A DNA stretch of 64,000 nt from Deferribacterales bacterium (GCA_050253335.1 JBFWJG010000001.1:46153-110152); one strand, 5' to 3'. Shown: positions 32,696-48,742, numbered from the stretch's first letter. Notes: generated from the letters alone by a model not told the origin. A program made the numbers and translations.

Positions 32696-34408
32696 ATGAA
32701 GCTCAACACGATCATGGCTCTTATTATTTCATTGGTGGTTGCCTGCGGCATGGGGATCATTCTTGCGGTTAACTACACTATCACGAAAAACCAGATGTTT
32801 AACGCTGAGTTTGAACGCGCAAGAAGCTTCATTCTGGCGGCGGAAGGCGTTAGGGAATGGGGAGCACAGCAGCTCAAGGAAGGCGTTTTCGCCACTGATG
32901 AGATCAAGTCTGATGTTGATAAGTTTCTCTACACTGTGCCTGTCATAGGTGCGATAAGGGTTATGGAGTCAAAGTCCGAAGAGGCCGGACTGAAGTTCAA
33001 GGTGCCTAAATTCCAACCGAGAAACCCCAAAAACGCTCCGGATGCTAAAGAAGCGGAAGTTCTTCAGATGCTTGCCAAAAAAGATACCGGCTCCGGTAAT
33101 ACCCCTGAGCATATGTTTTATGATAAAGAAACCGGAATGCTCCGTTATTTTAAGGCAATAAGGCTCACTTCAGAGTGCGAGCTCTGCCACGGCGATCCGG
33201 CGACCTCCTCCGAGCTCTGGGGAACAAACGACGGAACAGACCCGACAGGCGTTAAGATGGAAAACTGGAGAGCAGGGGAGATACACGGGGCATTTGAGGT
33301 CTTTCTTCCCACTAACAACGCATATGCCATGCTGCGCAAAGGGCTTTACACTTATATAGGCATATTCATCCCCATTACAATCGCTCTGATACTGGTGATA
33401 TATGCCCTTAACAAAAAAATGATTTTCAGAAGGCTTGAGGATATGGAGCGGGTTTTCAGCACCATAGCTTCCGGCGATTATACTGTTAAAGTTAAAATAA
33501 AGAGAGATGACGAGGTAGGCAAACTTGGCGTGGCTGTGAACAAAATGGTTGACGGAACCAGCCGTGCGCTTTCTATGGTTGTGGACAGCATCACAAGCCT
33601 CGCCAGCACATCCGCTGAGCTTGCGAGCAACTCGGAAACCATTGCGAAAAACGCGCAGAATCAGGCGGAACAGTCCGTGAGCACTGCGTCTGCTGTTGAA
33701 GAGATAAGCGGCACTGTGGCTGAAGTGGCTGAAAATGCCGCAAATGTTTCTGACAGCACAAATAAAGCGAAGCAGAACGTTGTCCGCGGTTATTCTCTTG
33801 TTATGGAAACAAGGGATATGATGGAGAAAATTGCCTCTACCGTTGAGGATTCGGCAGTAACCGTGCGGAAACTCGGCGAATCCAGCGAGCAGATCGGCGC
33901 AATAGTGCAGGTTATTGACGATATAGCGGATCAGACAAACCTTCTCGCGCTTAATGCCGCAATTGAGGCCGCAAGAGCAGGGGAACACGGACGTGGATTT
34001 GCGGTTGTCGCAGATGAGGTGCGCAAGCTGGCGGAAAAAACAGTGAAGGCCACCAAGGAAATAGCTGATATGATCCAGAATATTCAGGCTGACACGGGCG
34101 GCGCTGTTATGGGAATGGCCGAAGGTGTTCAGCAGGTTGATAGCGGAAAGCAGAAAGCTGTGGAAGCAGGAGACGCGCTCGGCGTTATCAAGTCAAACAT
34201 GGAGGATGTAGCGGGAGGCGTCGGCCAGATTGCCCGCGCTACGGACGAACAGGCGAATGCAATGGAGCTCATGTCCAGAAGCATAGAGAGTATATCCGCT
34301 ATCTCCGGCGAGAACTCAAACGCGGCACACGAATCTGCGGAAGCAGTGGAACAGCTCAGCAGGCTTGCCTCGGAGCTTCAGAATATTGTTTCCAGATTCA
34401 AACTCTGA
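32696..34408 (+). CDS. methyl-accepting chemotaxis protein with DUF3365 (c-heme) sensor domain
   Basis: TM, periplasmic PRNPKN and CELCH (CxxCH), [43 protein letters not shown]. Confidence 0.92.
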
Positions 34409-34416
34409 GAAAAATC

Positions 34417-34443
34417 AGGGGAGCCCTTAGGGCTCCCCTTTTT
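34417..34443 (+). terminator. terminator after the MCP gene
   Basis: aggggagccc-tta-gggctccccttttt. Confidence 0.8.
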
Positions 34444-34450
34444 AAAGCCG

Positions 34451-34524
34451 AGCGAGATAATTTTTACTCAATGGTGAGATAATTTTTTCTTGAAGCGGTT
34501 TGATACTGTCAAAAACAGTTTGAA
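34451..34524 (+). repeat. left-end motifs of the Mu-like element
   Basis: gAGATAAtttttactcaatggtgAGATAAttt and tgtcaaaaacagtttga; inverted counterparts at 47820-47920. Confidence 0.65.
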
Positions 34525-34528
34525 ACAC

Positions 34529-34560
34529 GAAAAAGGGCGGGATAAAAACCGCCCTTTTTC
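34529..34560 (-). terminator. terminator of the leftward repressor/cargo operon
   Basis: gaaaaagggcgg...ccgccctttttc. Confidence 0.8.
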
Positions 34561-34562
34561 AT

Positions 34563-35306
34563 TTAAATATTGTTCAAAAGTGTTATTGCGTTTTTGTCAT
34601 TCAAATCATACATTTTTTTCCACTCTGATAGCTGCCTAAAGCTAAGGGAAGGGAAACCTCTCAATATGTGTTCAACATCATATTCAAAATGGGCATATTT
34701 TTCTAAAAGTGCTTCCTGTGATGCCGAAAACATTTTTTCTTTTTTAGTTGCTATTAATGTGGTCATTAAAAGCTCGTTGTAAATCCAAGGAGAATATGTT
34801 GAGTAGTCATTTTCAACAGAGTTATCTGATTCAAGAAAAATAAAAACGGGTGTTTCCGAAATCATTTTAGTTAAAGCTGTAGACAAAATTATATTAATAT
34901 TATCTACACACCTTATTATTTGTTTTTTATTACTCATTGATCCAGTTAGTTCTTTAATCAAATTGTCTTTATATCCCCATACATCTGAATCAATAAATGT
35001 TGTTAAATCTAATTCTTTTGATAGCCAGTTTGAAAAATATTGTACTAAATCAACATCTGCATGGGAATGAGATAAAAAAATATCTGCATTTATTTGCGGA
35101 AACCAATCATTTTCAAGCCTAGCAACGTCAATCGTCTCATTTTTTAGAACATCGACCTTCCCTTTCAAATACTGCAAATATGGGCTATAGCTTCTTGTGC
35201 TTGCTTTTAGCCTTTTATCAAGTATTTCGCTAAATAAAAGATCTAGTCTTTTGGATGGTACAAACCTTTTAATTTCTGCTTCATTAATCTTAAACTTAAG
35301 GAACAT
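34563..35306 (-). CDS. TIR-domain protein (candidate antiphage)
   Basis: DIFLSHSHAD, FIDSDVW and SPWIYNEL (putative catalytic Glu) are TIR-like motifs; very AT-rich. Confidence 0.75.
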   Translation of the reverse strand: MFLKFKINEAEIKRFVPSKRLDLLFSEILDKRLKASTRSYSPYLQYLKGKVDVLKNETIDVARLENDWFPQINADIFLSHSHADVDLVQYFSNWLSKELDLTTFIDSDVWGYKDNLIKELTGSMSNKKQIIRCVDNINIILSTALTKMISETPVFIFLESDNSVENDYSTYSPWIYNELLMTTLIATKKEKMFSASQEALLEKYAHFEYDVEHILRGFPSLSFRQLSEWKKMYDLNDKNAITLLNNI

Positions 35307-35315
35307 GCCTACCTC

Positions 35316-35777
35316 CTATTGAAAATATGTAACAACGAGTGCAACCCCTGTTAAAATGAAATAAAGAGGAGCAACCGACCAAGTGAAAAAATTGTCTAAA
35401 ATGGAGCTTACTTTTTTATATGACATATCTGGCTTTAGATTAAAAAGTGTCCTGTCATCAAATTTACCGTCAAGCATAGCGGTAACAGCTTTATCGTATT
35501 TTGCTGTATAATCTTTTCTCAAAGCAGCATAGAGAGCATTCTGAACACCAAGAAGCACTATAACGACAAGGCATAAGGGAAGCTTCAAATTTGCCTGAAC
35601 AGAGTCATTGCTCAAAGCAATAATAGCTCCAACGATAAGTACACAAAGCATTCTACATTGAGATGAATAAGTAGACATTCTCACTATATTTTGCTGTATA
35701 AATTCAAGATAAGCGATAAATGAAGGTGAATCTGCTGTAGGCTTTTTTGAGCAATCTGAAGAGTCTTTATTTTCCAT
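35316..35777 (-). CDS. 3-TM membrane protein (TIR-associated effector-like)
   Basis: YLEFIQQNIVRMS then hydrophobic helices and a C-terminal WSVAPLY TM. Confidence 0.65.
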   Translation of the reverse strand: MENKDSSDCSKKPTADSPSFIAYLEFIQQNIVRMSTYSSQCRMLCVLIVGAIIALSNDSVQANLKLPLCLVVIVLLGVQNALYAALRKDYTAKYDKAVTAMLDGKFDDRTLFNLKPDMSYKKVSSILDNFFTWSVAPLYFILTGVALVVTYFQ

Positions 35778-35800
35778 TGTATAACCTTCTATGATTTCTT

Positions 35801-36475
35801 CTATTTTATTGACATTACATAGGTATAAAGCTTTTCGAGCTGCTTGAAATTCAGTTCCTTAAGAGATGATATTTCAACGTCCAGTAGCCTTTGAGCTATG
35901 ATGTAAGCATCATTCTTCTTATACCCTTTTTCCTTGAGCCTAACATGGATTGCAACCTGCCAATCTTTCATCACTTGGTTAGAGGTTATGTTGGGGGAGA
36001 TCTTACGCAAACGTGCTATCTGGCTGTTGAGATACTTTTGAATAGTAGGAAAATCGACTTGCTTAAGTTGATTATATTTCGTTACTTTAAATCTTCTGCA
36101 CAAAACCCCATACCACTTTTTATAAAGCCCTTGGCGGGTTTTAGTGTTGTCTGTGTCAAGGTCAACAAGCTCCTCAATCTTTGTGCGGACGGTGAGCTGT
36201 TGGGCAGGTGTTATGTCATCAGGCTGAGGAGCAATGACATGCTTTTCTGTGATCTTGGGGTTTACGTTCGTGATGAACTGGTTGTTGCTTCCTGCTATCT
36301 GGACGTTATTGTTGCCTTCAATGGATTGGCTTACGTTGGTCCGGGAACTGACCTGAAGGTTGCCGTCACCTTTAACCTTTTGAGAGGCTCTGCTTGTGTT
36401 TCCCAAAGGTTTCTTTCTTTTCTTAGCTTCTTTGAACAAGTCTATAATTTTGCCTTTTGTATCTTTGTCAGACAT
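35801..36475 (-). CDS. protein with N-terminal Q/N/G repeat motif and ORF6C-like DNA-binding region
   Basis: SQKVKGDGNLQV..SQSIEGNNNVQIAG; WYGVLCRRFKVTKYNQLKQVDF resembles ORF6C. Confidence 0.6.
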   Translation of the reverse strand: MSDKDTKGKIIDLFKEAKKRKKPLGNTSRASQKVKGDGNLQVSSRTNVSQSIEGNNNVQIAGSNNQFITNVNPKITEKHVIAPQPDDITPAQQLTVRTKIEELVDLDTDNTKTRQGLYKKWYGVLCRRFKVTKYNQLKQVDFPTIQKYLNSQIARLRKISPNITSNQVMKDWQVAIHVRLKEKGYKKNDAYIIAQRLLDVEISSLKELNFKQLEKLYTYVMSIK

Positions 36476-36497
36476 AATCAGCCTCTAAAATTATTCT

Positions 36498-36956
36498 TTA
36501 GTCTTCCATGAGGTTGTCAAATTTATATTTTTTTATACCTGCTTCAACAATACTAAATTCATCTTTCAATTTATTGTTCATCAGTACATAGTTATTTTGA
36601 AGTCTTGCAAAAATGCAATATGCTATGATTATTACAATTAATGAATGTATGGGGCTGAAAATATATGAAACTACGATAACCGATAAAAGAGTAATAATTA
36701 ACAATACAAACTTGTTCCATTCAAAATTGTCCACGTTTTTCTTGCTTTCTGCATTAAGTCTGTTAATTTCAGCATTAATCTTTTCAGGACTAATACGAGA
36801 TTTATTATTAGTAATGTTGAAATACTGGGTAAGGTCTCCTGACAGTTGTATGTTTCCACTGCCTTTAATATATTGACTTCCCGCCTCATGTGACTTGTAT
36901 TGTTGATTTTCATCACCGATAATTTTTTGAGATATTTTGTCATCTTTATCAGCCAT
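36498..36956 (-). CDS. 2-TM membrane protein with the same N-terminal Q/N/G motif
   Basis: SQKIIGDENQQY..SQYIKGSGNIQLSG followed by two hydrophobic helices. Confidence 0.65.
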   Translation of the reverse strand: MADKDDKISQKIIGDENQQYKSHEAGSQYIKGSGNIQLSGDLTQYFNITNNKSRISPEKINAEINRLNAESKKNVDNFEWNKFVLLIITLLSVIVVSYIFSPIHSLIVIIIAYCIFARLQNNYVLMNNKLKDEFSIVEAGIKKYKFDNLMED

Positions 36957-36964
36957 ACACACAC

Positions 36965-37390
36965 CTACGAAGCAAGGCTTATCAAATTGCGTATTTTATC
37001 TTTGTCTATAGTTGATTTCTCACTATTCATTGCGTCCTGAAGCAGGAGCATTACTAGCTTACTTTTCTTATCAGGCTTCATATAGAGGTCATTTTTATCC
37101 AATATTTCTTCAACTGTCTCAATAATCACTCTGAGCTTGTTTTCGATATTTTGGAAACCATTTGCTACTGTCTTGTACTCTTCTTTTGTATTTCCATTGA
37201 TAATCCAATTTAAATCTTGGTCATGGCATACTGAGAATATTTTCTCATAATCAAGAGAATTTCTTTTTTTCCATGTTGAAACCGTATTGGGCTTGATTTC
37301 AAGTAGTTGAGCAAGCTCCACATCACTGTGTAACCCTTTTACTTTTTTCAAACGCTCAATAACTAAAGTGGCATTTTGCGATTTTTCCAT
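36965..37390 (-). CDS. phage CI-like HTH repressor
   Basis: IERLK...SDVELAQLLEIKPNTVSTWKKRNS...DLNWIING; divergent from the ner-like gene. Confidence 0.85.
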   Translation of the reverse strand: MEKSQNATLVIERLKKVKGLHSDVELAQLLEIKPNTVSTWKKRNSLDYEKIFSVCHDQDLNWIINGNTKEEYKTVANGFQNIENKLRVIIETVEEILDKNDLYMKPDKKSKLVMLLLQDAMNSEKSTIDKDKIRNLISLAS

Positions 37391-37419
37391 TTGACACATT
37401 CTCAATTTGCGATTATTAT
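37391..37419 (+). promoter_or_regulatory. sigma70 early promoter of the element with candidate operator
   Basis: TTGACA-17-TATTAT; tttgcgatt occurs twice nearby. Confidence 0.7.
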
Positions 37420-37452
37420 AACGTATTAAAACAGTTTAGCACGAGGTCAACG

Positions 37453-37716
37453 ATGACACAATATGAAATCAAAACGGTTTTGACAGAGGAGATTAAACGG
37501 AAACTGCTTGAGAAGGGGCATTCCATATCGTCTTGGGCAAGGCTGAAAGGGTACAGGGTTCAGAACGTCATCACCTACATTGACCGCTATTCATCAAAAC
37601 CTCAACTGCCTCAAAGTCCAAAGATATATGAAATTTTACTTAACATTCGCAAAAGTACGGGTGTTGACCTCACAACAGGAAGAATACACAGCATGAGTAT
37701 AAGAAAAAGTACATAA
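37453..37716 (+). CDS. Ner/Cro-like DNA-binding protein
   Basis: EIKRKLLEKGHSISSWARLKGY, Ner-like HTH; position opposite the repressor. Confidence 0.7.
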   Translation: MTQYEIKTVLTEEIKRKLLEKGHSISSWARLKGYRVQNVITYIDRYSSKPQLPQSPKIYEILLNIRKSTGVDLTTGRIHSMSIRKST

Positions 37717-37733
37717 GACCTCCTTTGGTTTTG

Positions 37734-37777
37734 CCCTCCGTGTGTTTTCAGTGCTTCAAGCACGGAGGGATTTTTTT
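37734..37777 (+). terminator. terminator after the ner-like gene
   Basis: ccctccgtg...cacggaggg-a-T7. Confidence 0.65.
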
Positions 37778-37813
37778 CACCACTGGAGAAATAACAATAA
37801 CGGAGGAAACAGA

Positions 37814-38050
37814 ATGACAGCGGAACAGGCAAGAGAACGGGTAAACGGAGTTATCAGGCTGTTGGACGGGCTAACAGTAAAGGAAGCTAACCAAGTGCTT
37901 GATTCCGTAAGAAGGCAGACACAGGAAGCCATTATAAGACCGCTGGAAGACGGCATGAATTTGGCTGTTCCCCCCCAAAGAGACAGTTTCATCACTTCGC
38001 TTGAGGCTTTGGTTGAACGGCATACTAAAGGCAGTCCTGCCTCTATTTAA
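37814..38050 (+). CDS. hypothetical phage protein
   Basis: GGAGG RBS before MTAEQARER. Confidence 0.55.
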   Translation: MTAEQARERVNGVIRLLDGLTVKEANQVLDSVRRQTQEAIIRPLEDGMNLAVPPQRDSFITSLEALVERHTKGSPASI

Positions 38051-38061
38051 GGCTTTGTAAG

Positions 38062-38304
38062 GTGGTTATTTTGGAAACTGGATTGAAAGAGACGCTTGTT
38101 AGAGAACTAAGTGCAGCAAACCCTGAATATACACCTAAGGACGTTATCACCGCCTTAAAGGGTAACAGGGAATGCGCCTTTCTGACGGCGTGTGAGTTTG
38201 CGGACTTGGTTCTGGAAATATTTGAAGAAAGCAGCTTGGCGAAGATGTTTTACAGCATGAGAGAGCTTAAGAGGAGCGGGGGAGAAAAAATCCTCCCCCT
38301 TTAG
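38062..38304 (+). CDS. hypothetical phage protein
   Basis: ORF in the early operon, same strand as neighbours. Confidence 0.4.
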   Translation: MVILETGLKETLVRELSAANPEYTPKDVITALKGNRECAFLTACEFADLVLEIFEESSLAKMFYSMRELKRSGGEKILPL

Positions 38305-38462
38305 CCAAGCGATAAGCACCTTAGAACGCTCTGCCCCAACGCTTCCCAAGAATGCTTACAAGGCTTATGCCAGTTTGATCAGGTGACATGGGTAACGTAC
38401 AGGCGAATATGCACAAATACACAGGTAACACAGCTTAGGAATTAACGTCAAAAGAGGTTGAA

Positions 38463-38750
38463 ATGGCAAACAATATACAGAAGTTCGCAAAACTTGTTGA
38501 TACAGAGGAGTACGGTCAAGTCCTTCTGATGACTCTTTATAACGATGAGGCAGAACAATATGAGCTTAGATTTATGGTTAATTCAGGCAATCTCACTATT
38601 CAGGAATTACGTTGGGGCTTTCTTCCACATGCAACATTAGAAGATATATACGACTACTTGATGGATTTTCCTGTTGAGGGAATTGTTGAGGCTATTGGCA
38701 TGATGATAGAGAGAGCACCTGAAGCATGGATTCAGACGAGGGAGATATAA
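38463..38750 (+). CDS. hypothetical phage protein
   Basis: GAGG RBS, acidic 95-aa ORF. Confidence 0.6.
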   Translation: MANNIQKFAKLVDTEEYGQVLLMTLYNDEAEQYELRFMVNSGNLTIQELRWGFLPHATLEDIYDYLMDFPVEGIVEAIGMMIERAPEAWIQTREI

Positions 38751-38751
38751 G

Positions 38752-39276
38752 GTGCAAGGTACAGGTTTTAAATTAGATACGAGCGAGCTTGAAGATCTTT
38801 TCAAGGATCTGTTAGCGAAAATTGCAAATCCTAAACCTGCATTGCGTGATATAGGCGAAGCTCTTGTCTCTAGCACAGTCGAACGTCTGTATGATGGTGT
38901 CACACCTGAGGGGAAAAAGCAAACACCCGTTAAAAATCGTCCTGGTGAAACACCCCTATTGGATTCGACAGACTACTCAAGAGGCTTCAAATATGCAGTA
39001 GGTAAAGATTGGGTTGTTGTTGGCACGAATAAGCCGCAAGCCCGTCTGCTGCACAAAGGCGGTGTGCTTGAACCCAAAGTAATCAAATCCAAAGTAGGCA
39101 AAGACGGTAAGCGTAAGCCTTTAGCTTTTACCATAGGCGGTAAAAAAGTCTTTGCCCATAGTGTAAAAATTCCTGCGGTCACAATACCCGCTAGACCGCA
39201 CATAGGCATAAGTGAAGATGATAAGGAAGAGATAGCCTATCTTATAAGGCTTTACTTATCAGGAGCAGCAAAATGA
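38752..39276 (+). CDS. phage virion morphogenesis protein (Mu gpG / P2 gpS family)
   Basis: P.L..IGE.L..ST..R, VVVGTNKPQARLLHKGG, IPARPHIGISEDD. Confidence 0.85.
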   Translation: MQGTGFKLDTSELEDLFKDLLAKIANPKPALRDIGEALVSSTVERLYDGVTPEGKKQTPVKNRPGETPLLDSTDYSRGFKYAVGKDWVVVGTNKPQARLLHKGGVLEPKVIKSKVGKDGKRKPLAFTIGGKKVFAHSVKIPAVTIPARPHIGISEDDKEEIAYLIRLYLSGAAK

Positions 39277-39437
39277 TAAAAATTTATTTAACAGTATTTT
39301 TCGGAACGGTGCTTCTTATGAATGTCTTTAACGGGATTCAACTTATGAATCAGAAACCTAACATCATTATAACGGCAATATCTACAGGCATGACAATAGC
39401 CCTTTGTATGTTGTTGCTGGCTGCTTTGTGGAAATGA
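39273..39437 (+). CDS. 54-aa two-TM protein (not in ORF track)
   Basis: ATGA overlap with the upstream stop; MIKIYLTVFFGTVLLMNVF...ALCMLLLAALWK*. Confidence 0.55.
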   Translation: MIKIYLTVFFGTVLLMNVFNGIQLMNQKPNIIITAISTGMTIALCMLLLAALWK

Positions 39438-39446
39438 GGGGGATAT

Positions 39447-39743
39447 ATGGCTGAAAAAACATACAAGCCCATAGCGGCTGGGTTAAAGATACTCAAAGCT
39501 TTAGACATTATCGCAATGAGTTCCGAGCCTGTGACGGTGAAGCGGATAACGGAAATGACCGAAGAACCATACGGAACGACCATGACGCACATAGCCACGC
39601 TTGAACAGGCTGGCTACATAGAGCGTGTGGGTGACGGATACGCTATCACCCTGAAGCTCGGTACGTTCTGGGCAAAGAAAAAGGCAAGCCTTCAAGGGGT
39701 AATAACCCGCACACAGGCGGAACTAAGGGAAATAGGAGCATAG
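39447..39743 (+). CDS. IclR-type HTH protein of Mu-like phages
   Basis: AGLKILKAL...TVKRI...YGTT..HIATLEQAGYIER...YAI. Confidence 0.75.
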   Translation: MAEKTYKPIAAGLKILKALDIIAMSSEPVTVKRITEMTEEPYGTTMTHIATLEQAGYIERVGDGYAITLKLGTFWAKKKASLQGVITRTQAELREIGA

Positions 39744-39746
39744 GTT

Positions 39747-40745
39747 ATGAAGCGTGATATTGAATACGAACAGGCACAGCTTGAGGCGGCTGATGACATA
39801 GCAGAGATGGAGCTTGCCAAGGTTCAGCAGGTGAAATCAGAGCAACCGCATAATCAGCAGGAAAGAGAGGCGTTGATTGCGGAAGCGTACAGGCTGACAG
39901 GTAGAATTGAAGCATTTTCGACTTTTGCAAAATTTGCCGATGTCGGCACTTTGATTATGCTTAAACAAATCAAAGACAACAAGATTTATAAAGATATGCC
40001 AAGTCTTGGTACATGGGAAAATTATTGTCAATCAATAGGAATGTCAAGGAGCAAAGTAGATGAAGACCTCAAAAACCTTGAAATGTTTGGCGAAGCTTTT
40101 TTAGCCGACATCGGCAGTTTTGGACTTGGCTATCGTGAACTTCGCAAGCTCCGCTCCGCCGCTTCGGAAGGAACACTTTCCATAACCGACAATTCTATCA
40201 CTATCGAAGTGATAGACGGCGAAACAACCAAGCAGGAGACCATACCGTTGAACGACAAGGACGAGCTGAAGGAAGCCCTTGAGCGTATCATCACCGCCAA
40301 AGATGAAGCTCTTGCCGCTAAAGACCGTGAGCTGAAGGCGCAGGAAAAGCTAACAGAGTTCAACAAAAACGAGTGGGATAAAAGCGAAAAACAACTTCTT
40401 ACAGCCACAAAAGAGCTTAATAAGCTGACTGGCAAGGGTGTTATAAACGGCGTACCTTCTGATGATTACCCCATCTTCTCAAGGCTTTCAAGCGTTGCTT
40501 CGGACATAACGGGCATTTATGCAGAGCTGAAGCAGATTCATGCGGAAACGCTTTCTGACAACAACACCCAGTATCTCCACGGAACAATCATGTACATGGT
40601 TCAACTTGCCAGTGAGCTTTCATTCCTTGTGCCTGCGGGCATAGGAGACATGGAGGCAACGCCCGATGAAATTGACGAGATAGCAGACGGTTTACCTCTC
40701 CCCGGCATACGCAACCTGCCTAATTACGGAAAGGCTGAAAGGTAA
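39747..40745 (+). CDS. DUF3102-like protein preceding the Mu-like transposase
   Basis: LKQIKDNKIY..TWENYC..IGMSRSKVDEDLKNL..FGEAFL..GLGYRELRKLR. Confidence 0.65.
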   Translation: MKRDIEYEQAQLEAADDIAEMELAKVQQVKSEQPHNQQEREALIAEAYRLTGRIEAFSTFAKFADVGTLIMLKQIKDNKIYKDMPSLGTWENYCQSIGMSRSKVDEDLKNLEMFGEAFLADIGSFGLGYRELRKLRSAASEGTLSITDNSITIEVIDGETTKQETIPLNDKDELKEALERIITAKDEALAAKDRELKAQEKLTEFNKNEWDKSEKQLLTATKELNKLTGKGVINGVPSDDYPIFSRLSSVASDITGIYAELKQIHAETLSDNNTQYLHGTIMYMVQLASELSFLVPAGIGDMEATPDEIDEIADGLPLPGIRNLPNYGKAER

Positions 40746-40749
40746 GCAT

Positions 40750-42531
40750 ATGTCACCTGAAGCTCTGAATCACATAAAAACCTCTCTTGAGACCTGCGAA
40801 ACGCCTAAGGAACGCACCATCGAAGCCGCAAGGTTGAGTGAGTTCTACGGTATTTCTACCGCTTCATTTTGGAGATGGGCAAACAAGGCGGGTTTTCGGG
40901 TGCGTTCGGCACGCTCCGACAGGGGTAAAAGCGAGCTGACAGATGACGAGTTGAAGCTTATAGCCGCTAGAGTGCTTGTGGGCAAGCAGTTAAGGAACAA
41001 GTTTACCAACTCCGTTAAAAACGCCCTTGAGGAGCTTGCAAGAGAGGGGTTCACCTTCCCTGTGGGGTATGAACGTATATGCTCACTGCTTCGTGAAAAG
41101 GGGTACGACAAGGAGAGCTTGGCGACTATTCCGCCCCATGTAAGGCTTATCTCAAAGCACCCGAACGAGACATGGCAGTTTGATGTTACCAACTGCTTAC
41201 AGTGGCATTTGGACAAGAAAACAGGGCTTACAGAGCGTGATTTGGAGATGAATTTCTACAGCAACAAGGCTGTGAAGTTTCTTAAAACCATCAAAAGGGA
41301 GCTTCTCCGCTTCGTTATGGTTGACCATTGCACGGGTGCTTTTTTCTTCTGGTATTACTATGTTCCCGGCGAACGTGCAGAGGAAGGGGCGGACTTCTTT
41401 TATAAGGCTTTTGCTAGGAAAGACAGCCTCATACAGACCTATCTGAACTCTGAAACAGGCATGTACCAGATGCACGGAGTACCTTTCAGGCTTGTTTCCG
41501 ACAAGGGGTCAATCCTTAGGCATAAGTCTATTATCAACCTTATGGACGCTCTTGATGTGAAGATTGAGCTTCATGCCGCAGGCAACCCAAGGGCAAAAGG
41601 CAAGGTTGAACGCCTTATGCGCACCATAGGCACTAAGTTTGAAACAATCCTGAAAGTACGCCGACCTGTAGACCTTGCCGAGCTGAACCGATGGGCATTG
41701 GCATGGTGCATTAACCATAATCAGACCTTCGTGAGCAAAAAGAAGGAGCTTCCTGCCGCTGAATACTGGCTGAAGATAAGGCAGACAGAACTTAGGCTTT
41801 GCCCTCCCGAAGAGCTTTTTAAGACCCTTATACACAGGGCGGATTATGAAAGAACGGTTGACGGCAGTGGGCATATATCATTCCACGGACGGGAGTATTT
41901 TATCAAAGATGTCAACGCCGTACGCAAGAAGGTTAAGGTCACTATCAATGCCTATGAATACCCACTGATTGATATTCATTTTGACGGGCATGTATGGAAG
42001 ACCGCCCCTATAGGAACAGACGAATACGACAGGCTGATAAGCCCTGCAAACGTTGAATACGGCACTTACAGGGCATTACCCCATACCATCACGCAAAAGC
42101 ATATCAGCGAGCTTGAACAGGTGGCTATAGACAACTTTGGAGTCGGTTTTAAGGGTAATAAGCAGAAACGCCAGTCCATAGCCCCAGAACGAGGCAAAGA
42201 GAAGATTAAACCTATGGATAAGGTCATTCAGCCTGAGAAGGTTCACCATCTTCAGAAACAGGGCATTGAGCTTGTAACGCCTGATATCCATGCACCTTTG
42301 ACGGAAAAAGAGGAAAGGCACTACACCGTTACGCTTCTGTTTGACACTGGTGAAAAACGCCTTAGCACAACCGACTTGATACTCCGTATTGTTCGGGAGG
42401 TTCGTAAGCTCTCGGTTGAGGAAAATAAAGCGATAAAAGCACGTTGGAAGAACGGAGTAACAGCCACAGAGGCAGACCAAATTATACAGAACATGCTGGA
42501 GGTGACACATGCCGAGAGTAATTACAGCTAA
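40750..42531 (+). CDS. Mu-like DDE transposase
   Basis: PNETWQFD, VDHCTG, VSDKGS, GNPRAKGKVER integrase-core motifs. Confidence 0.9.
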   Translation: MSPEALNHIKTSLETCETPKERTIEAARLSEFYGISTASFWRWANKAGFRVRSARSDRGKSELTDDELKLIAARVLVGKQLRNKFTNSVKNALEELAREGFTFPVGYERICSLLREKGYDKESLATIPPHVRLISKHPNETWQFDVTNCLQWHLDKKTGLTERDLEMNFYSNKAVKFLKTIKRELLRFVMVDHCTGAFFFWYYYVPGERAEEGADFFYKAFARKDSLIQTYLNSETGMYQMHGVPFRLVSDKGSILRHKSIINLMDALDVKIELHAAGNPRAKGKVERLMRTIGTKFETILKVRRPVDLAELNRWALAWCINHNQTFVSKKKELPAAEYWLKIRQTELRLCPPEELFKTLIHRADYERTVDGSGHISFHGREYFIKDVNAVRKKVKVTINAYEYPLIDIHFDGHVWKTAPIGTDEYDRLISPANVEYGTYRALPHTITQKHISELEQVAIDNFGVGFKGNKQKRQSIAPERGKEKIKPMDKVIQPEKVHHLQKQGIELVTPDIHAPLTEKEERHYTVTLLFDTGEKRLSTTDLILRIVREVRKLSVEENKAIKARWKNGVTATEADQIIQNMLEVTHAESNYS

Positions 42532-43714
42532 TGCACGGGAAATCAACCTAAAACGGATAATACAGGCTGCACGTATGACGCAGGAAGGTTTCCGTACCAT
42601 GTTGGCAGAGGAAGCGCAGATAGATATAGCGCAGTCAAGCTTCAAGCTGCTTCTGCAAAAAGGGATTATCCCTAAATGGATAGATAAGAAGCAGGTTGAA
42701 GGCTTTGTCATGACAAGGCTGCCTTTCGTTATGCAGTCACAGGAACTGACAGCCCCGCAGATATGGGATTATGCGGAGCAGGAACAGGGTAAAAGGTTCG
42801 TGTTTGAAGCAAGCGAAGACGATTATGCCAAAAAGTTAAAAACATACATGGAGATTACTATGCTTAGATTGGATACAATGAGGCATTTCAAACTGGCTCA
42901 GAACCCTTTCATTTTGGATATACGCAGAGAGAGCGAGATATTCATGGGTTCATCTCATCAATTCGCCTTTGAAGTGATGAAACAGACGGCGGAAACAGGC
43001 GGGTTTGCCGTTATCACGGGTGAAGTCGGAGCGGGTAAATCAACCGTTCGCCGCAAGTTTTTTGAGGACTCAAGGCAGAATAAGATTTGCCAGATTATTT
43101 ACCCTGAATCAATCGACAAATCACGTTTGACTGCTAAGGACGTTCTGTATTCCATCATCTACGACCTGACCGAAGCCAAGCCGCAGGGCAATAAAGAAGC
43201 CCTAAGCAGGCAGGCAAAGGCACTGCTGCTTGCCAGAAGCAACAACAATGAGCGTACGGTTCTGGTTATCGAAGAGGCTCACGACCTGCCTGTTACCACC
43301 TTGAAGTTTCTTAAGCGCATATGGGAGCTTGAAAACGGTTTACAGAGGCTTTTAGGCATTATTCTCATAGGTCAGAATGAGCTTGAGACAAGGCTTTACG
43401 GACGAAACAGTACGGAGATAAGGGAAGTGACCGCAAGAACCGCTCATGCAAGGGTTGAAGCTCTCGGCAAGGAAATGCCTTCTTACATAGCTCACAAGTT
43501 CAAATGCGCTAAGGCAGATGTGAACAGGATTATTTCACCTGAAGCACTTAAGCTTTTGGTTGACTGTATGAAGATAACCGACCGTATGGGCAAAGAAAAA
43601 TCAATGGGGTATCCGCTCTTTGTGAGCAATGTGATGATAAGGCTTATGAACTACGCAGCAGAAGCGGGGGAAGAGCTTATAACCCCTGAAATAATAGAGA
43701 CGGTAGGAGTTTAG
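42509..43714 (+). CDS. MuB/ExeA-like AAA ATPase with N-terminal extension
   Basis: NPF, GEVGAGKST, VIEEAH, ILIGQNEL. Confidence 0.9.
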   Translation: MPRVITANAREINLKRIIQAARMTQEGFRTMLAEEAQIDIAQSSFKLLLQKGIIPKWIDKKQVEGFVMTRLPFVMQSQELTAPQIWDYAEQEQGKRFVFEASEDDYAKKLKTYMEITMLRLDTMRHFKLAQNPFILDIRRESEIFMGSSHQFAFEVMKQTAETGGFAVITGEVGAGKSTVRRKFFEDSRQNKICQIIYPESIDKSRLTAKDVLYSIIYDLTEAKPQGNKEALSRQAKALLLARSNNNERTVLVIEEAHDLPVTTLKFLKRIWELENGLQRLLGIILIGQNELETRLYGRNSTEIREVTARTAHARVEALGKEMPSYIAHKFKCAKADVNRIISPEALKLLVDCMKITDRMGKEKSMGYPLFVSNVMIRLMNYAAEAGEELITPEIIETVGV

Positions 43715-43715
43715 C

Positions 43716-44081
43716 ATGGAAAGAGTAGGCATATTTATTATCAGGTATGACGGGCGTTTTATGGTTATGCCTGACGGTACGGGAACGTTAAGAGGCTTTT
43801 TAGAAGAAGGGGAGACCCCAACCGATGCGGCAGTCAGAGTTTTGGCGAACTCTGCCCCATGCGGCTACACAGGCTCTCCCGTGTTTGTTATATCCGAAAA
43901 AACAGAGGTTGCGAAGGATTATCTGTTTGCCGTCCGTGCGGCAAAGCATGACGGCAGATTTTTGAGCCACAAAGAACCTACGGATATGGTTCAGTGCTTA
44001 GCTTGGACTTCTCTGCGTCAGGCTGAAAAGAAAGAAAAATATGTAAAGAAACAAATAGCTGATAAGGCGGTGAACTCATGA
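43716..44081 (+). CDS. hypothetical protein with degenerate Nudix-like box
   Basis: GFLEEGETPTDAAVRVL lacks the REUxEE glutamates. Confidence 0.5.
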   Translation: MERVGIFIIRYDGRFMVMPDGTGTLRGFLEEGETPTDAAVRVLANSAPCGYTGSPVFVISEKTEVAKDYLFAVRAAKHDGRFLSHKEPTDMVQCLAWTSLRQAEKKEKYVKKQIADKAVNS

Positions 44082-44284
44082 GCTACACACATAACATGAC
44101 AAACGCAGAACGGCTTAGAGAGCTGGCTAAACTAAGCAGCACGGTTGGTGAGTTTCAGGACAAAGCCATATCGGGCGTAATGCTGAAAATGACTTTATCA
44201 GAGTTTGAAACAGAGCTGGAAACCATGAAGGTAGGGGATCTGCACGACTACTTTGAAAAGGTCAAAAACGGAGATGGAAAATGA
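44078..44284 (+). CDS. hypothetical phage protein
   Basis: Coupled ATGA overlaps at both ends. Confidence 0.55.
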   Translation: MSYTHNMTNAERLRELAKLSSTVGEFQDKAISGVMLKMTLSEFETELETMKVGDLHDYFEKVKNGDGK

Positions 44285-44766
44285 CCATACAAAACTGGAA
44301 CGATGTTGATAAGGCACTCCGCCTTATCGGTGAAAAAGAAATAGCACTGGCAAATATAGACGGCGATATGACGCTTAAAATAAACGCTGTGAAAGAGGAC
44401 GCAAAACAAGCAGCCGAAACCATAGCCATAGAGAAAAAGGAGCTTGAAAAGGCTGTAGAGGGCTTTTGTGAGGCGAATAAGGCTGAGTTTGCCCTTAAAC
44501 GCAGCAAAGAACTTACTTTCGGTGAGATAGGTTACAGGCTGGTTAAGTCCGTATCCATTCCAAGAGTTAAAACTAAGCTTGAATCACTCATAAAGAGCTT
44601 AAAGGTTTTCGGGCTTTCCGACTGCATTACATACACCGAAGCAGTGGACAAGGACAAGCTTACGGAATTGAAAGATGAAGACCTTGTAAAGCTCGGTTTA
44701 AAGCGCACCGTCAAGGATTCGTTCCGTATCAAAACCAACATTGAGAAGGTTAAGGAAGTCGGTTGA
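44281..44766 (+). CDS. gam: Mu Gam-like host-nuclease inhibitor
   Basis: WNDVDKALRLIG...FCEANK...KELTFGEIGYR...VDKDKL. Confidence 0.85.
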   Translation: MTIQNWNDVDKALRLIGEKEIALANIDGDMTLKINAVKEDAKQAAETIAIEKKELEKAVEGFCEANKAEFALKRSKELTFGEIGYRLVKSVSIPRVKTKLESLIKSLKVFGLSDCITYTEAVDKDKLTELKDEDLVKLGLKRTVKDSFRIKTNIEKVKEVG

Positions 44767-44797
44767 ACCCCAAGTACCAATTTAGCAGGAGATAGCT

Positions 44798-45085
44798 ATG
44801 AACACGAAAAGTCAGACGGTTTTCAATCAAAGCTTCCAAGAGGTTGTAGAGGTTGTGGGTATGGAAGGGGCGATAAAGCTTTGTGAAGTCTTTGGTGGGC
44901 TTGAAATATACATTCCAAAAATGGACTACCTAAAACGCTTGGAGAGGAACAGAGCTATAGTTGACGCTTATGACGGTACTCAAGCTTCTATTGCCCTGCT
45001 TGCTAAAGAATACCAGCTTTCTTCAAACCAAATCAGAGTGATTTTGAGAGGAAGGAAGACACGAAATAAGGAGATTGAAGCATGA
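44798..45085 (+). CDS. mor: Mor/C family transcription activator
   Basis: GAIKLCEVFGGLEIYIPK...RNRAI...LAKEYQLSSNQIRVIL. Confidence 0.88.
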   Translation: MNTKSQTVFNQSFQEVVEVVGMEGAIKLCEVFGGLEIYIPKMDYLKRLERNRAIVDAYDGTQASIALLAKEYQLSSNQIRVILRGRKTRNKEIEA

Positions 45086-45600
45086 GCAATAGGAAATATT
45101 ACACTCTTACGGGAGAAAGTCTTAAAAAGGTTAAAGTATTTGTTGATGAGCTTCAGGCAGTCTTTAAGAAAAGGAATGAGTACATGAAAATAAACAATTT
45201 CGCAGGACTCACGCATGGCGGTGGAGTTGTTAGCGGAGTGATTTTGAAGGAACAATCTGACGATAAAAAGTGGCGAAAAAGAAAAAAGGCTTCGCAGTAC
45301 GGATACGCTCATTACCCATCAAACACAAAAGAAGGCAAAAAGATTTCAGGTGAGCTAAGCAGACTTAGAGGAAAGGATATGATGGCTTTCAGCGATGAAT
45401 TTAACCTGCCTTTAGCGTTTACAATGGAAGGCTTATACACATCGGCAGTTCATCTTGTAGGCGAAAACATTATTTTGACTGTTCCAGAGCCAGAAGAAAT
45501 TAAGCCTGAACACCCTTTTTTCAAAGACGCTACCCTGCTTAAGCTAAGCGAGTATTACGCACTCAAAGAGCAGGTGCTAGAAGCCGAAACGCCCCGCTAG
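45082..45600 (+). CDS. hypothetical phage protein
   Basis: Coupled to mor; YPSNTKEGKKI; its 3' end overlaps a hammerhead ribozyme. Confidence 0.65.
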   Translation: MSNRKYYTLTGESLKKVKVFVDELQAVFKKRNEYMKINNFAGLTHGGGVVSGVILKEQSDDKKWRKRKKASQYGYAHYPSNTKEGKKISGELSRLRGKDMMAFSDEFNLPLAFTMEGLYTSAVHLVGENIILTVPEPEEIKPEHPFFKDATLLKLSEYYALKEQVLEAETPR

Positions 45601-45645
45601 GGGTGTCTGGTGGGAGTAACCGCCCATCACTGACGAGGCAGGTTA
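45583..45645 (+). ncRNA. type II hammerhead ribozyme #1
   Basis: gcc-GAAAC-gcccc(gcta)ggggt-GTC^-tggtggg(agtaaccg)cccatca-CTGACGA-ggc; loop taacc can pair with ggtta at 45641-45645. Confidence 0.88.
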
Positions 45646-45656
45646 AGGAGTTATCC

Positions 45657-45818
45657 ATGTGGAAATATATTGTTGGCTGGTTCATCGTGAACACTGTTTT
45701 TGCTATCTACGAAGAAATCGTATATGGCAAAGCTTTCGTACATATTTTTGACATTCTTAATGTGCTTTTTTGGGGTGGTTTGTATCTCCTTGAACTTTTC
45801 GGAGGAGCATATGAATAG
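45657..45818 (+). CDS. small two-TM protein
   Basis: AAGGAG RBS, MWKYIVGWFIV... Confidence 0.55.
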   Translation: MWKYIVGWFIVNTVFAIYEEIVYGKAFVHIFDILNVLFWGGLYLLELFGGAYE

Positions 45819-46371
45819 GGTAACGGCAAAGCAGGTTCAGCTGATTCATATAGCCAAAAAGCAGCTTGAAATATGCGATGACGATTACCGCAGTATTTTG
45901 AATGAATACTTCAAAGTTAGGAGTTCTAAAGACCTTACGGAACGTCAGGCTGAAAGACTGATTACTCATTTCAGGCAAAAAGGTTTCCGTATAAACACCG
46001 CCAAGAAAGCCAAGCCTACAGGCTCTACTATTATCGCTTTCCCTACATCATTTCAGCTTGAGCTTATAGAGGTTTTAAAAAGCAATATCGTATGGAAAGC
46101 AGGATTTGAGGGGTTTCAGCTTTGGCTTGAAAAGCGAATGAGGATTAAGAAAATTCGCACAAAGCAAGAGGCGGCAAAAGTCATTGAAGGCTTGAAAGCC
46201 ATGCTTGGGATTGATGCCGAGATAATCAAAATGAAATCGCTGCCTTTCCCTATATGCCTTGATGAAGCCTACTTTATAGATAACTTCACGGGTGAGGTTC
46301 TGCCCTTCAGGTGGGTTTATGACATTGAAAAAAGAAAGCTTATCAGAATTGAAAACTCTATATGGAGATAA
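45811..46371 (+). CDS. gemA: GemA / Mu gp16 (DUF1018) regulatory protein
   Basis: QLIHIAKKQL..DDDYRSIL...SSKDLT..QA..LI..F..GF; KVIEGLKAM. Confidence 0.85.
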   Translation: MNRVTAKQVQLIHIAKKQLEICDDDYRSILNEYFKVRSSKDLTERQAERLITHFRQKGFRINTAKKAKPTGSTIIAFPTSFQLELIEVLKSNIVWKAGFEGFQLWLEKRMRIKKIRTKQEAAKVIEGLKAMLGIDAEIIKMKSLPFPICLDEAYFIDNFTGEVLPFRWVYDIEKRKLIRIENSIWR

Positions 46372-46373
46372 AT

Positions 46374-46562
46374 ATGAGAATAACTTGTACTGCACAGATT
46401 CGCCCTTACTGCTTTTTTGGAACGGGGAAGTGCTGCCTTGCTTGTCCGTTAAACCAGAAGTGCCGCGAAGAAAATAAAAAGAAAGGTTGTAAGCTTATAC
46501 CTTGCGGTGATGAACACGCCGAATCTTTAAAAGAGTGTGGATTCTGCTCCATTGAGAAGTAA
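46374..46562 (+). CDS. small Cys-rich protein (10 Cys)
   Basis: GGAG RBS; MRITCTAQIRPYC...CCLAC...CGFC. Confidence 0.5.
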   Translation: MRITCTAQIRPYCFFGTGKCCLACPLNQKCREENKKKGCKLIPCGDEHAESLKECGFCSIEK

Positions 46563-46601
46563 GTGAAGATCTTAACAAAATTATATAAAAAGGAGATTAA
46601 A

Positions 46602-47069
46602 ATGAAAAACTGGGAAGACGTTTCAGCCGGAATAAGCAGGCTGACCGCAATTAAGCACGAAAAAAAGCAATTAAAAATCACAGCCGGAAGAGTGGCGGAC
46701 AGTGTTATTAACGAACTTGTCAAAAGAAGAGACGATGAAATCAACGCAATCAGAATGAAGTACGCTGAACTTATTCCGCAGGAACAGGCAAAAACGATAA
46801 AAGAGATCTCTTCCAAAAAAGACAAGCTCAATGAAGAAGCTTTTGAGCTTGAAGAATCTATAAAAGATTACGTGCTTCAAAGCAAGGAAACAAAGGAGAT
46901 AAAAGAGCTAATCGAACAGCCATACAAAAGAGATGACAATTCACCGTATGAGTTTAATAAGACCTTCAGAGAGGGGAGTATATACTATCGGAACAACCTT
47001 CCTTTCACCATACCTCCGTCATATTCAAGAAGTGAAGAGATTCAGATTATATTGAATTGTGATAGGTGA
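46602..47069 (+). CDS. second, divergent Gam-like coiled-coil protein
   Basis: MKNWEDVSAGISRL resembles Gam IQNWNDVDKALRL; KTFREGSIYYR resembles KELTFGEIGYR. Confidence 0.55.
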   Translation: MKNWEDVSAGISRLTAIKHEKKQLKITAGRVADSVINELVKRRDDEINAIRMKYAELIPQEQAKTIKEISSKKDKLNEEAFELEESIKDYVLQSKETKEIKELIEQPYKRDDNSPYEFNKTFREGSIYYRNNLPFTIPPSYSRSEEIQIILNCDR

Positions 47070-47073
47070 ATCA

Positions 47074-47676
47074 ATGGCTTGGGATAAAATAGCACGAACA
47101 GGCTCTTTTACTGATATGAACGGAAATACATACACCTTCACCGATGATATTCTCAAACGTTTGGTGCGTTCTTTCAAAACTGGTTCAGAAAAAGTACCCC
47201 TTGTCTTAGGTCACCCTGAAACAGACTATCCTGCACATGGTTGGATAAAAGATTTAAGAGTAAATAACGGCTTTCTTGAAGCTCAATATGAAAACCTCTC
47301 TGAAGAGTTGAAAAGACTCGTACAGGAAGGACGGTTTAAATATAAAAGTATCTCCGTTAATGGCGGTCTGACCAAGTTGAAGCACTTAGGCATACTAGGT
47401 GCGGTTGCACCTGCTATGAGCGGCTTAGGGAGCATTCAGTTTAATAAATATGATAACGGCATTGTGATGTACTTTGCTGAAAAGGTCATGGAGGGAAATA
47501 TGACATTAGAAGAATTAGGTAAAATGGTTGAGCAACAGCAAGACGAAATCGAAAAATGCAGAAGGGACATTGACGCACTTATGAAGGCAATCGCCGCAGG
47601 CGGTACTTCATCGTCTAGCTTCGCAAGTTCCAGTCACTACGGTGTATCAGGGCAGAAAATGGCAAGTAAGCTTTAA
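47074..47676 (+). CDS. Mu-like prohead protease (gpI-like) with short C-terminal scaffold
   Basis: IARTG.FTD, PLVLGHP..PAHGWI, GRFKYKSIS, LKHLGILGAVAPAM.GL. Confidence 0.85.
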   Translation: MAWDKIARTGSFTDMNGNTYTFTDDILKRLVRSFKTGSEKVPLVLGHPETDYPAHGWIKDLRVNNGFLEAQYENLSEELKRLVQEGRFKYKSISVNGGLTKLKHLGILGAVAPAMSGLGSIQFNKYDNGIVMYFAEKVMEGNMTLEELGKMVEQQQDEIEKCRRDIDALMKAIAAGGTSSSSFASSSHYGVSGQKMASKL

Positions 47677-47681
47677 CCTGA

Positions 47682-47735
47682 AGCCGAAACAGGGGAAAGC
47701 CCCCTGTCTGCAACTAAGCTTGTACTGATGAGGCT
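47682..47735 (+). ncRNA. type II hammerhead ribozyme #2
   Basis: agcc-GAAAC-agggg(aaagc)cccct-GTC^-tgcaa(ctaagc)ttgta-CTGATGA-ggct. Confidence 0.88.
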
Positions 47736-47819
47736 GCGGTAAAAAATTTAAAAACGACCCGCAAAAAATTACAAAAAACACACATCTTCAAAAAATTCAA
47801 AAAAAATCCTGAAAACCAA

Positions 47820-47920
47820 TCAAAACAGTTTTGACATTTAACACAAAAGGAGCGGAGTGTAAGACACCTGTTAAGAGATTTTTCTAAATTATCTCATCAT
47901 TAGCGGGTTCTTATCTTACA
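47820..47920 (-). repeat. right-end motifs of the Mu-like element
   Basis: Reverse complement reads TGTAAGATAAgaacccgctaatgatgAGATAAttt...tgtcaaaactgttttga. Confidence 0.7.
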
Positions 47921-47941
47921 CCCCGTCACCTTTTTGTTTGT

Positions 47942-48742
47942 TTATTTTACAGAAAAGCCCACTACGGCTTCGGGGGTGATCACTCTGAATGTGAATGATT
48001 CCGTAAGGAACAGGTGCACCTTTTCGGAATCGTGGTTGTGGTAGCCAACTGCAAAATCCTGCCCTATTGTGAGTTCAAGGTCGCCTTCCCTGTCAGCGAC
48101 GAGGAGAGCACCGTCAACCGCTTCCGAATAGACAACGGAACCTTTGATCTGCTGTTTGATCAGGTCTCCCAGTGTTCCGCCGGGGAAGAGCCGTGCGAGG
48201 TATTTCCACAGAGCGGGATTGACAACGAGATTTGCGCCGCCTGTAATCCCTTCCTTCATCATGCGTGTCTGAGCTTCGCTCACAGCGTCCACTATGCTGT
48301 CCTTGTCCAGAGTCATTGCAATTTTTGACTTGGCAGTAAGCTGGTTCAAGCCCACAATGCCGCTGTCCTTAAAACCGTTGAAAACAGCATTTTCCTCGAA
48401 TGCAGCAAGCTTTCTGGCCGCTTCGGTGAGGGGCTCCAGCTCAAGGTCTTTTGCGCCTCTGTCTATGTTGTCCAGCTCCCATATATCAAGGGAGAAATTG
48501 ACTCTCGCCTCAACAAGAGGAAGTATTTTGTGTACACCGAAGCATACCTCTCCTGCTTTCTGCTTAGCGGGCAGAGCAAGGCGCCCGAGGCTGACTGAAG
48601 TGTAATCTATGCCGTAAGGGCCTTCAACATCCGCAAACTTTCTGGCTGAAAGGTTAGCGGACAGGGTTTCTTTAGCGAGTGTGTTTATTTCTTTCCATGC
48701 TGCTGCGCTTATCGGTGCGAAATCTTTTCTGAGCAGATTCAT
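47942..48742 (-). CDS. family 1 encapsulin shell (Linocin M18-like)
   Basis: MNLLRKDFAPIS..AW, SARKFADVEGPYG, ELDNIDRGA, LTIGQDFAVGY, ESFTFRV. Confidence 0.95.
   Translation of the reverse strand: MNLLRKDFAPISAAAWKEINTLAKETLSANLSARKFADVEGPYGIDYTSVSLGRLALPAKQKAGEVCFGVHKILPLVEARVNFSLDIWELDNIDRGAKDLELEPLTEAARKLAAFEENAVFNGFKDSGIVGLNQLTAKSKIAMTLDKDSIVDAVSEAQTRMMKEGITGGANLVVNPALWKYLARLFPGGTLGDLIKQQIKGSVVYSEAVDGALLVADREGDLELTIGQDFAVGYHNHDSEKVHLFLTESFTFRVITPEAVVGFSVK

Follow-up and report, generated by a model that had tools for sequence, protein, structure and literature searches.

What remains of a Mu-like phage when most genes for its virion are gone, and does such an element merely decay in the chromosome or does it travel in the particles of another phage? 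The question is raised by a stretch of 64,000 nucleotides from a Deferribacterales bacterium (GCA_050253335.1 JBFWJG010000001.1:46153-110152), called the window below, in which a first description made without database searches (the sequence-only reading) had placed a capsid-less Mu-like element at positions 34451-47920 and had proposed a streamlined Mu-derived satellite rather than random decay. The element, designated E1, is a Mu-type insertion of 13,486 bp at window positions 34443-47928. It is best explained as a helper-dependent Mu derivative in the style of B3 and BcepMu, i.e., a natural mini-Mu and a satellite in the broad sense, an explanation to which we give a probability of about one half. 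The evidence behind it consists of ends that nearly match those of E2, a larger Mu-like prophage in the same genome, an intact set of regulation and replication genes without a late arm, two virion assembly genes located in the early operon, and the recurrence of the compact form in a sequencing run of another study.

The termini of E1 were fixed by aligning its ends with those of E2, which gives the following boundaries.

34437-34442, unstranded: target-site duplication, left copy CCTTTT, present as a single copy at the empty site of sister genome G024
34443-34524, plus strand: late-arm terminus, starting with TA (TAAAGCC...) where E2 has TG; 92.5% identity with the C16 end of E2
47819-47928, plus strand: early-arm terminus, ending with ..GTCA (...CCCCGTCA); 90.9% identity with the C9 end of E2
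47929-47934, unstranded: target-site duplication, right copy CCTTTT, a direct 6-bp repeat of the left copy

The discrete, bounded element of the sequence-only reading thus stands, while its exact ends shift to 34443 and 47928; the right end, said to lie about 240 bp past the last gene, does so at a measured 252 bp. In G024, the terminator of the chemotaxis-receptor gene directly joins the 3' end of the encapsulin gene, with one CCTTTT between them. Independent assemblies of X1, the probable source run (records 2, 4 and 5), back both E1 junctions as well as the internal order, and G+C is 0.35-0.48 within E1 against about 0.49-0.52 in the flanks. The late-arm terminus contains direct 12-mer repeats of a transposase site (34452-34463 and 34474-34485), and the 12-mer, GTGAGATAATTT, occurs with at most one mismatch at three sites in the 64 kb, namely at 34452, at 34474 and, inverted, at 47886-47897, all of them at E1 ends. 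The termini read TA...CA in E1 and TG...CA in E2, and the duplication is 6 bp for both elements. Adjoining E1, on the minus strand at 47942-49128, are genes for an encapsulin (Linocin_M18, E 2.5e-82) and an EncFtn/rubrerythrin-like partner. This operon was considered as part of E1 and ruled out, as it is host DNA that is also found at the empty site of the sister species.

The gene inventory was compiled from a listing of open reading frames (ORFs), 25 of which were scanned with Pfam and PHROGs; nine E1 proteins were scanned with PADLOC. From left to right, the annotated features, with protein lengths in amino acids (aa), are as follows.

34563-35306, minus strand: ThsB-like TIR protein (cargo), 247 aa; PADLOC PDLC00430, E 4.9e-40; phrog_33368; Pfam TIR_2 below the cut-off
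35316-35777, minus strand: PDC-M50A-like candidate defence protein (cargo), 153 aa; PADLOC PDLC04686, E 2.3e-12; phrog_19896
35801-36475, minus strand: cargo protein with a weak anti-repressor-like match, 224 aa; phrog_17822, E 4.7e-9; phrog_2127, E 3e-4
36498-36962, minus strand: small protein, 154 aa, its start 2 nt past the stop of the repressor gene; membrane-protein families matched only weakly
36965-37405, minus strand: CI-type repressor consisting of the helix-turn-helix (HTH) alone, without an S24 peptidase domain; Pfam Phage_CI_repr, E 2e-9; phrog_4
37391-37419, plus strand: sigma-70-like promoter, TTGACA-17-TATTAT (11/12), the best in E1 and just 5' of ner, by consensus match only
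37453-37716, plus strand: Ner-like HTH protein, opening the early operon; phrog_8503 and phrog_925
38752-39276, plus strand: Mu G / P2 S-like virion morphogenesis (tail-completion/neck) protein; Pfam Phage_tail_S, 69.2 bits (cut-off 24.3); phrog_26
39447-39743, plus strand: winged-helix DNA-binding protein, upstream of A in all relatives
39747-40745, plus strand: phrog_4623 protein, 332 aa, conserved and preceding A in all relatives
40750-42531, plus strand: DDE transposase A; phrog_310, E 1e-51; D251-35-E287 and further invariant Asp residues kept
42509-43714, plus strand: MuB-like AAA+ transposition protein (B); phrog_296, E 6e-42; Pfam AAA_22
44281-44766, plus strand: Gam-like DNA-end protection protein; Pfam Phage_Mu_Gam, E 1.4e-34
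44798-45085, plus strand: Mor-like late-transcription activator, placed before gemA; Pfam Mor, E 5e-13
45700-46371, plus strand: GemA-like protein; Pfam GemA, E 3.7e-15
46563-47069, plus strand: 168-aa protein overlapping the start of the protease gene; an ORF with no Pfam or PHROGs family match
47059-47676, plus strand: prohead (head-maturation) protease, 205 aa; phrog_976, E 3e-34; assemblin-like fold predicted

Every gene of E1 is open, and many start codons overlap the preceding stop. Downstream of the repressor gene lie four cargo genes, that of the TIR protein among them. The early operon, in which the ner gene is followed by several small plus-strand ORFs, reads toward the 47928 end, and the promoter at 37391-37419 is the likely early promoter, as judged by its consensus and position. 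The catalytic D/D/E columns of transposase A are invariant in an alignment of 11 sequences. These annotations bear out much of the sequence-only reading: the Mu-type regulation and replication set (repressor/ner, A, B, gam, mor and gemA) with open ORFs and coupled overlaps is confirmed, the two morphogenesis genes it saw as retained are those for the Phage_tail_S protein and the phrog_976 protease, and the defence-like cargo corresponds to the ThsB-like TIR and PDC-M50A-like proteins identified by PADLOC. The absence it reported of terminase, portal, major capsid, tail and endolysin genes also holds, as the 25 ORFs gave no match to terminase, portal, major capsid, tail or lysis families, and E1 is therefore not a complete Mu-like phage. 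Nor did any scanned ORF match an integrase or primase, which places E1 outside the P4-like, PICI, cfPICI, PLE and PICMI families. No ThsA match was found among the nine proteins scanned with PADLOC, and the TIR gene, with a ThsB-like match alone, is thus only defence-like and does not amount to a Thoeris system. Atlas searches with the 168-aa protein and a 172-aa protein returned nothing informative.

The second, larger Mu-like prophage of the genome, E2, is assembled in two parts, at 34059-41523 of contig C16 and 45793-52835 of contig C9 (loci L021 and L005). The sequences flanking these parts abut in sister genome G022 with a 6-bp overlap, ACAGGC, so E2 is a single insertion with a 6-bp duplication. 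At its C16 end lie genes for a Dam-type methylase, a tail-fibre chaperone, a fibre and P2-type baseplate proteins, and all of them read toward that end. This identifies the E1 end at 34443 as the late-arm (tail-fibre/methylase) end. The non-coding ends of the two elements agree at 92.5% over 80 bp and at 90.9% over 110 bp, whereas their coding DNA reaches 70-75%, and the last 53 residues of transposase A are 92% identical; together, the conserved ends and the conserved C-terminus of A point to common end recognition. The sequence-only reading had called for a comparison of nonsynonymous (dN) and synonymous (dS) divergence across homologues. Between E1 and E2, dN is 0.12-0.27 in eight gene pairs and dS is at least 1.4, saturated or not computable in all eight. 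On this measure, E1 and E2 are old lineages. Saturated synonymous sites also rule out that E1 is a recent deletion of E2, from which it differs in gene order as well. Both elements are missing from all three sister genomes. Between the C9 end of E2 and the next gene lies a tandem repeat of about 113 bp (L005, about 12540-12800), of which sister genome G024 has more copies, with BLAST hits spaced 113 bp.

Which part of a Mu-like phage E1 has lost can be seen from its full-size relatives. The relatives of transposase A at 35-50% identity are found in Mu-like prophages of Mucispirillaceae and other Deferribacterota; a search of genome contigs with the transposase gave eight loci at 35-42% identity, and identity to cultured phages is 25-29%. 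Searches for closer relatives returned one distant locus in IMG/VR and two in JGI metagenomes. In the relatives, late genes run leftward from beside the repressor and the early operon runs rightward in the order ner, small genes, winged HTH (wHTH), phrog_4623, A, B, gam, gemA, mor. The mor gene is the last before the end in three of the four annotated early arms (L010, L011 and L013), and L015 has plus-strand genes beyond it. E1 is rearranged in comparison, with mor ahead of gemA and three extra genes past gemA. All six late arms fetched from Mucispirillaceae prophages encode a terminase, a Phage_portal_3 portal, Mu F, DUF2213, a sheath-like DUF3383 protein, baseplate proteins and a DNA methylase. 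This arm, about 25-30 kb long and present in 6/7 surveyed relatives, is wholly absent from E1. Many IMG/VR contigs with related transposases measure 34-42 kb, and the cultured relatives (Pseudomonas B3-like phages, Stenotrophomonas phiSHP3 and Leptolyngbya Lsp-JY19) 37-40 kb. The relative in genome G041 has a different make-up: located on contig C10 (L030 2400-20000 and L031 1-8800) and with 50% transposase identity to E1, this Mu-like element has the early arm, an amidase, a repressor and a complete contractile tail module that includes three fibre genes, but it lacks terminase, portal and capsid genes. It thus resembles a transposable element of a headless, tailocin-like kind.

The two assembly genes of E1 do not sit where a remnant of the late arm would be expected. 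The G-like Phage_tail_S gene, a single copy in its genome, lies within the early operon, and a BLASTP comparison of E1 proteins with every ORF in the fetched loci revealed no G-like homologue and, for the protease, only a distant match on contig C4. While homologues of the protease (n = 3787) mostly measure 270-320 aa, that of E1 has 205. Two internal deletions in the coiled-coil/helical part of the E1 protein recur in a 189-aa protein of 60% identity, and both proteins keep the C-terminal ..KL tail; no remnant of the missing part is found downstream of the E1 gene. A 3'-truncated pseudogene is ruled out by this conserved tail and by the lack of a downstream remnant, and alignment marks the E1 protease as a short variant that is conserved rather than truncated. 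H52, S97 and H109 are invariant across 53 aligned sequences, a set that we take to match assemblin-type Ser/His/His chemistry. An AlphaFold model, with a predicted local distance difference test (pLDDT) score of 84, has its best PDB matches among herpesvirus proteases and T4 gp21, at weak E-values of at least 1.7e-3, and the protein is on this basis predicted to be an assemblin-fold prohead protease with a shortened scaffold-like region. The phrog_976 type also occurs in another Mu-like lineage of the bacterial family (G021 and G029) and in a chromosomal cluster on C4; a pattern search for the protease in IMG/VR gave no match. Assembly genes in the early operon without counterpart in the relatives, a displaced mor and an intact short protease argue for adaptation over simple deletion. 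Assembly or packaging of a helper may be redirected by the short protease/scaffold and by the G-like protein.

The compact form of E1 is not confined to one run. Sampled E1 words were recovered at 93% in run X2, from another study, and at 21-23% in two wastewater runs; no RNA run was listed among those containing them. In X2, four overlapping contigs with 0, 0, 3 and 0 differences and a depth of 5-11 span 34626-47332, i.e., the compact form with three differences in 12.7 kb. The left flank of the window (32601-33802) has depth 0 there, a hole in cover that in itself proves nothing, and the right flank is represented by one contig only, at depth 35 and with 173 differences in 1,697 bp (~90% identity). 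Short contigs with E2-like versions of both ends are present in X2 as well. Two further studies (runs X3 and X4) contain eight and seven short contigs, respectively, each differing at 0-1 positions and scattered over the stretch that begins with the TIR gene and ends with the protease gene. Taken as contig sequences, these finds are suggestive of a compact unit that recently moved between backgrounds. Two joints in X2, 46605/49554 and 49565/43958, have short sides and were treated as spurious. In X1, contigs break inside both E1 ends, as expected if E2 has the same ends. The exact 401-aa B protein (42509-43714) is on record on three contigs, one of which, from another assembly, measures 14,992 bp, about the size of E1 plus short flanks.

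Other collections gave no further copies. Neither phage records nor 72,556 plasmid records matched E1 DNA, the conserved 38-nt end sequence had 0 matches in IMG/VR, and word-index searches for homologues returned the proteins of the window itself and one relative each, nothing more.

E1 combines the loss of most virion genes with regulation and replication of its own, as phage satellites do, and a helper-dependent natural mini-Mu could work in the following way. In the lysogen, the cargo genes would be expressed from the repressor operon. Upon de-repression, E1 would undergo replicative transposition by its own A and B, while a co-induced Mu-like helper, E2 or a similar phage, would supply lysis, heads and tails. 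Headful packaging of E1 would start at the end sequences that it has in common with the helper, and in a new cell E1 would be inserted by its own transposase. It is a more speculative step that the G-like neck protein and the short protease/scaffold may enter helper procapsids and favour particles suiting a 13.5-kb genome; redirection of capsid size by the short protease/scaffold is an attractive idea, if an unlikely one. Likewise, the fullest version of the proposal, in which E1 is the first recognised Mu-type phage satellite, with its own transposase, helper packaging via common ends, small heads of ~13-16 kb brought about by protease/scaffold and neck protein, and a TIR cargo that defends the host, should be regarded as unlikely in its entirety. 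What stands of the streamlined satellite put forward by the sequence-only reading is an element that is compact and intact, with assembly genes in the early operon, a conserved short protease, a recurrence in X2 and E2 beside it, whereas helper use, packaging and capsid remodelling are what we infer for E1.

Among known systems, mini-Mu and mini-D3112 with a helper come closest: like E1, they have two Mu-type ends, A and B, an immunity region and the late genes removed. A mini-Mu is packaged by its helper via headful, together with flanking host DNA. Unlike the laboratory constructs, E1 is natural, has its own cargo operon, a prohead protease, a neck protein and a rearranged early operon, and is found in several metagenomes. 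With B3-like phages and the Mucispirillaceae prophages, it has in common a core of wHTH, phrog_4623, A, B, gam, gemA and mor genes directed toward one end, yet B3-like phages are 37-40 kb with full late arms and E1 is 13.5 kb without one. In addition, the target duplication of E1 is apparently 6 bp, whereas that of Mu is 5 bp. P4 (Sid/Psu) and SaPI/PICI (CpmB scaffold) resemble E1 in having about one-third of the size of a typical helper, their own regulation and replication, a few genes possibly acting on helper capsid assembly, and defence-type cargo; capsid size is redirected by Sid in P4 and by the CpmB scaffold in SaPI/PICI. Unlike them, E1 has no integrase, primase or AlpA-type module and inserts and replicates by DDE transposition, and the factor that may act on assembly is, in E1, a catalytic protease with a short scaffold-like tail.

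In the literature, a full-text search (with supplements outside its scope) found no description of a Mu-derived or transposable satellite. The available part of a paper on transposable prophages of Leptospira mentions only mini-Mu's in this connection, engineered mini-Mu's that retain the capacity to transpose (PMC8705779). As reviewed in 2024, satellite families include P4-like, PICI, cfPICI, PLE, PICMI, VEIMEs, Tycheposons and a few others; those treated in the accessible text of that review have non-transposase integration and replication of their own, and none is derived from a transposable phage (PMC11389934). Similarly, in the portion available of a 2026 gut-prophage preprint, only a P4-like satellite is mentioned beside Mu-like phages.

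If E1 is a Mu-type satellite, it would represent a new route of satellite origin, in which a transposable phage loses its late arm, and would provide a natural test of whether a shortened protease/scaffold sets capsid size. Heads of the Mu type package host DNA adjacent to the element by headful. If E1 is packaged in this way, every one of its insertion sites would contribute host DNA to the particles as well, making E1 a transducing agent.

Several observations weigh against dependence on a helper, and part of them favour the foremost alternative, namely that E1 is a defective prophage, a cryptic repressed remnant with its late arm deleted, in which the assembly genes and cargo are leftovers or chance gains. 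Truncated Mu-like prophages are known from other bacteria, and E1 would then be ordinary; we regard this account as possible, if on the unlikely side. In its favour, relatives with enough context are mostly full-length prophages (6/7), and one deletion, from the late-arm end interior to the genes downstream of the repressor, could account for the loss of the late arm and gives the layout of E1. The sequence-only reading had named, as grounds against itself, full-length prophages as closest relatives together with a unique deletion junction in this copy; with these six of seven, the first half of that was observed. It had also advised a search for the same gene order and size at unrelated loci. 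The compact order is carried by the X2 contigs, apparently in another flanking context; a second compact homologue was not found in 68 reference genomes of the phylum. The IMG/VR search gave no compact homologue either, and JGI metagenomes contained only distant relatives. The left terminus is TA rather than TG, which, judged from what is known of Mu termini, could weaken transposition, and the depth of E1 in X1 (10.9) equals that of its flanks and thus gives no sign of ongoing replication. The record in X2 consists of contigs, among which the E1 junctions were not recovered.

Other points bear on the helper itself. The search of the same genome for one, advised by the sequence-only reading, yielded E2, larger, related, with near-identical ends and with tail genes; the assembled E2 is incomplete, its middle is missing from the assembly, and its head genes were not recovered. 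Searches of the genome for the sheath, tube, Mu F, Phage_portal_3 and DUF3383 families were blank; four of these searches were blank in control genomes too and are therefore weak negatives. The contig ends of C16 and C9 overlap with no other contig, and tblastn of the relatives' late proteins against the genome recovered the C16 tail genes only. Moreover, the E1 protease belongs to phrog_976, while the closest full-length relatives have a DUF2213-type head module, and it may therefore not fit the E2 capsid. One relative, that of G041, is itself headless, with lysis and tail genes and no head genes.

Against a defective prophage, however, speak the G-like and protease genes, which lie in the early operon rather than in the position of a late-arm remnant and lack a counterpart in the relatives, and the protease, an intact short variant also present in another sequence. 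Furthermore, no ORF of E1 is broken, the compact form recurs nearly unchanged in runs of other studies without the flanks of the window, and the ends are conserved far beyond the level of synonymous sites.

Alternatively, E1 may be a Mu-derived transposon without a virion stage, mobile by A and B, carried by plasmids, conjugative elements or other phages and kept for its defence-like cargo. The complete A/B module with terminal sites and a target duplication, the cargo in the repressor operon and the near-identical copies in several metagenomes are consistent with such a life. Nevertheless, gam, mor, gemA and the genes for the prohead protease and neck protein are all open, and we see no role for the two assembly genes outside a phage cycle. 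Plasmid records yielded no match, as stated above, and no conjugation or mobilisation gene was recognised by Pfam or PHROGs among the E1 ORFs scanned. We regard a virion-less transposon as quite improbable.

Finally, it is highly improbable that E1 exploits the chromosomally fixed, family-wide head genes on C4 (protease-decoration-capsid) and C15 (terminase-portal) instead of a prophage. In favour of this are its protease, of the same phrog_976 family as the C4 protease and 29-31% identical to it, and the C4 capsid and C15 portal genes, without stops in 16/16 family genomes. Against it, the similarity of the proteases is only distant, particle formation by the chromosomal cluster is at most putative, and the ends of E1 match E2 and not the cluster.

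These head genes sit among host genes in two clusters. The first, from 16596 to about 28337 of C4 (L007 and L008), extends from the protease, decoration protein and major capsid protein through further genes to an endolysin-like gene; the second, at 9715-12264 of C15 (L024), comprises a large terminase and a Mu-type portal. Within the family, the stop-free capsid gene is 62-97% identical among the 16 genomes, and capsid and portal together 54-97%. Outside it, the C4 capsid has one match, in G063 at 40% identity, and a comparable orthologue in none of 49 other genomes. The two clusters are candidates for a vertically inherited, domesticated head system resembling a gene transfer agent (GTA-like). 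On C15, the terminase-portal pair is bordered on one side (L024 6326-8900) by a PilZ protein and three HTH regulators, of which two have an S24 peptidase domain, and on the other (L024 12721-16619) by two large proteins of 608 and 691 aa.

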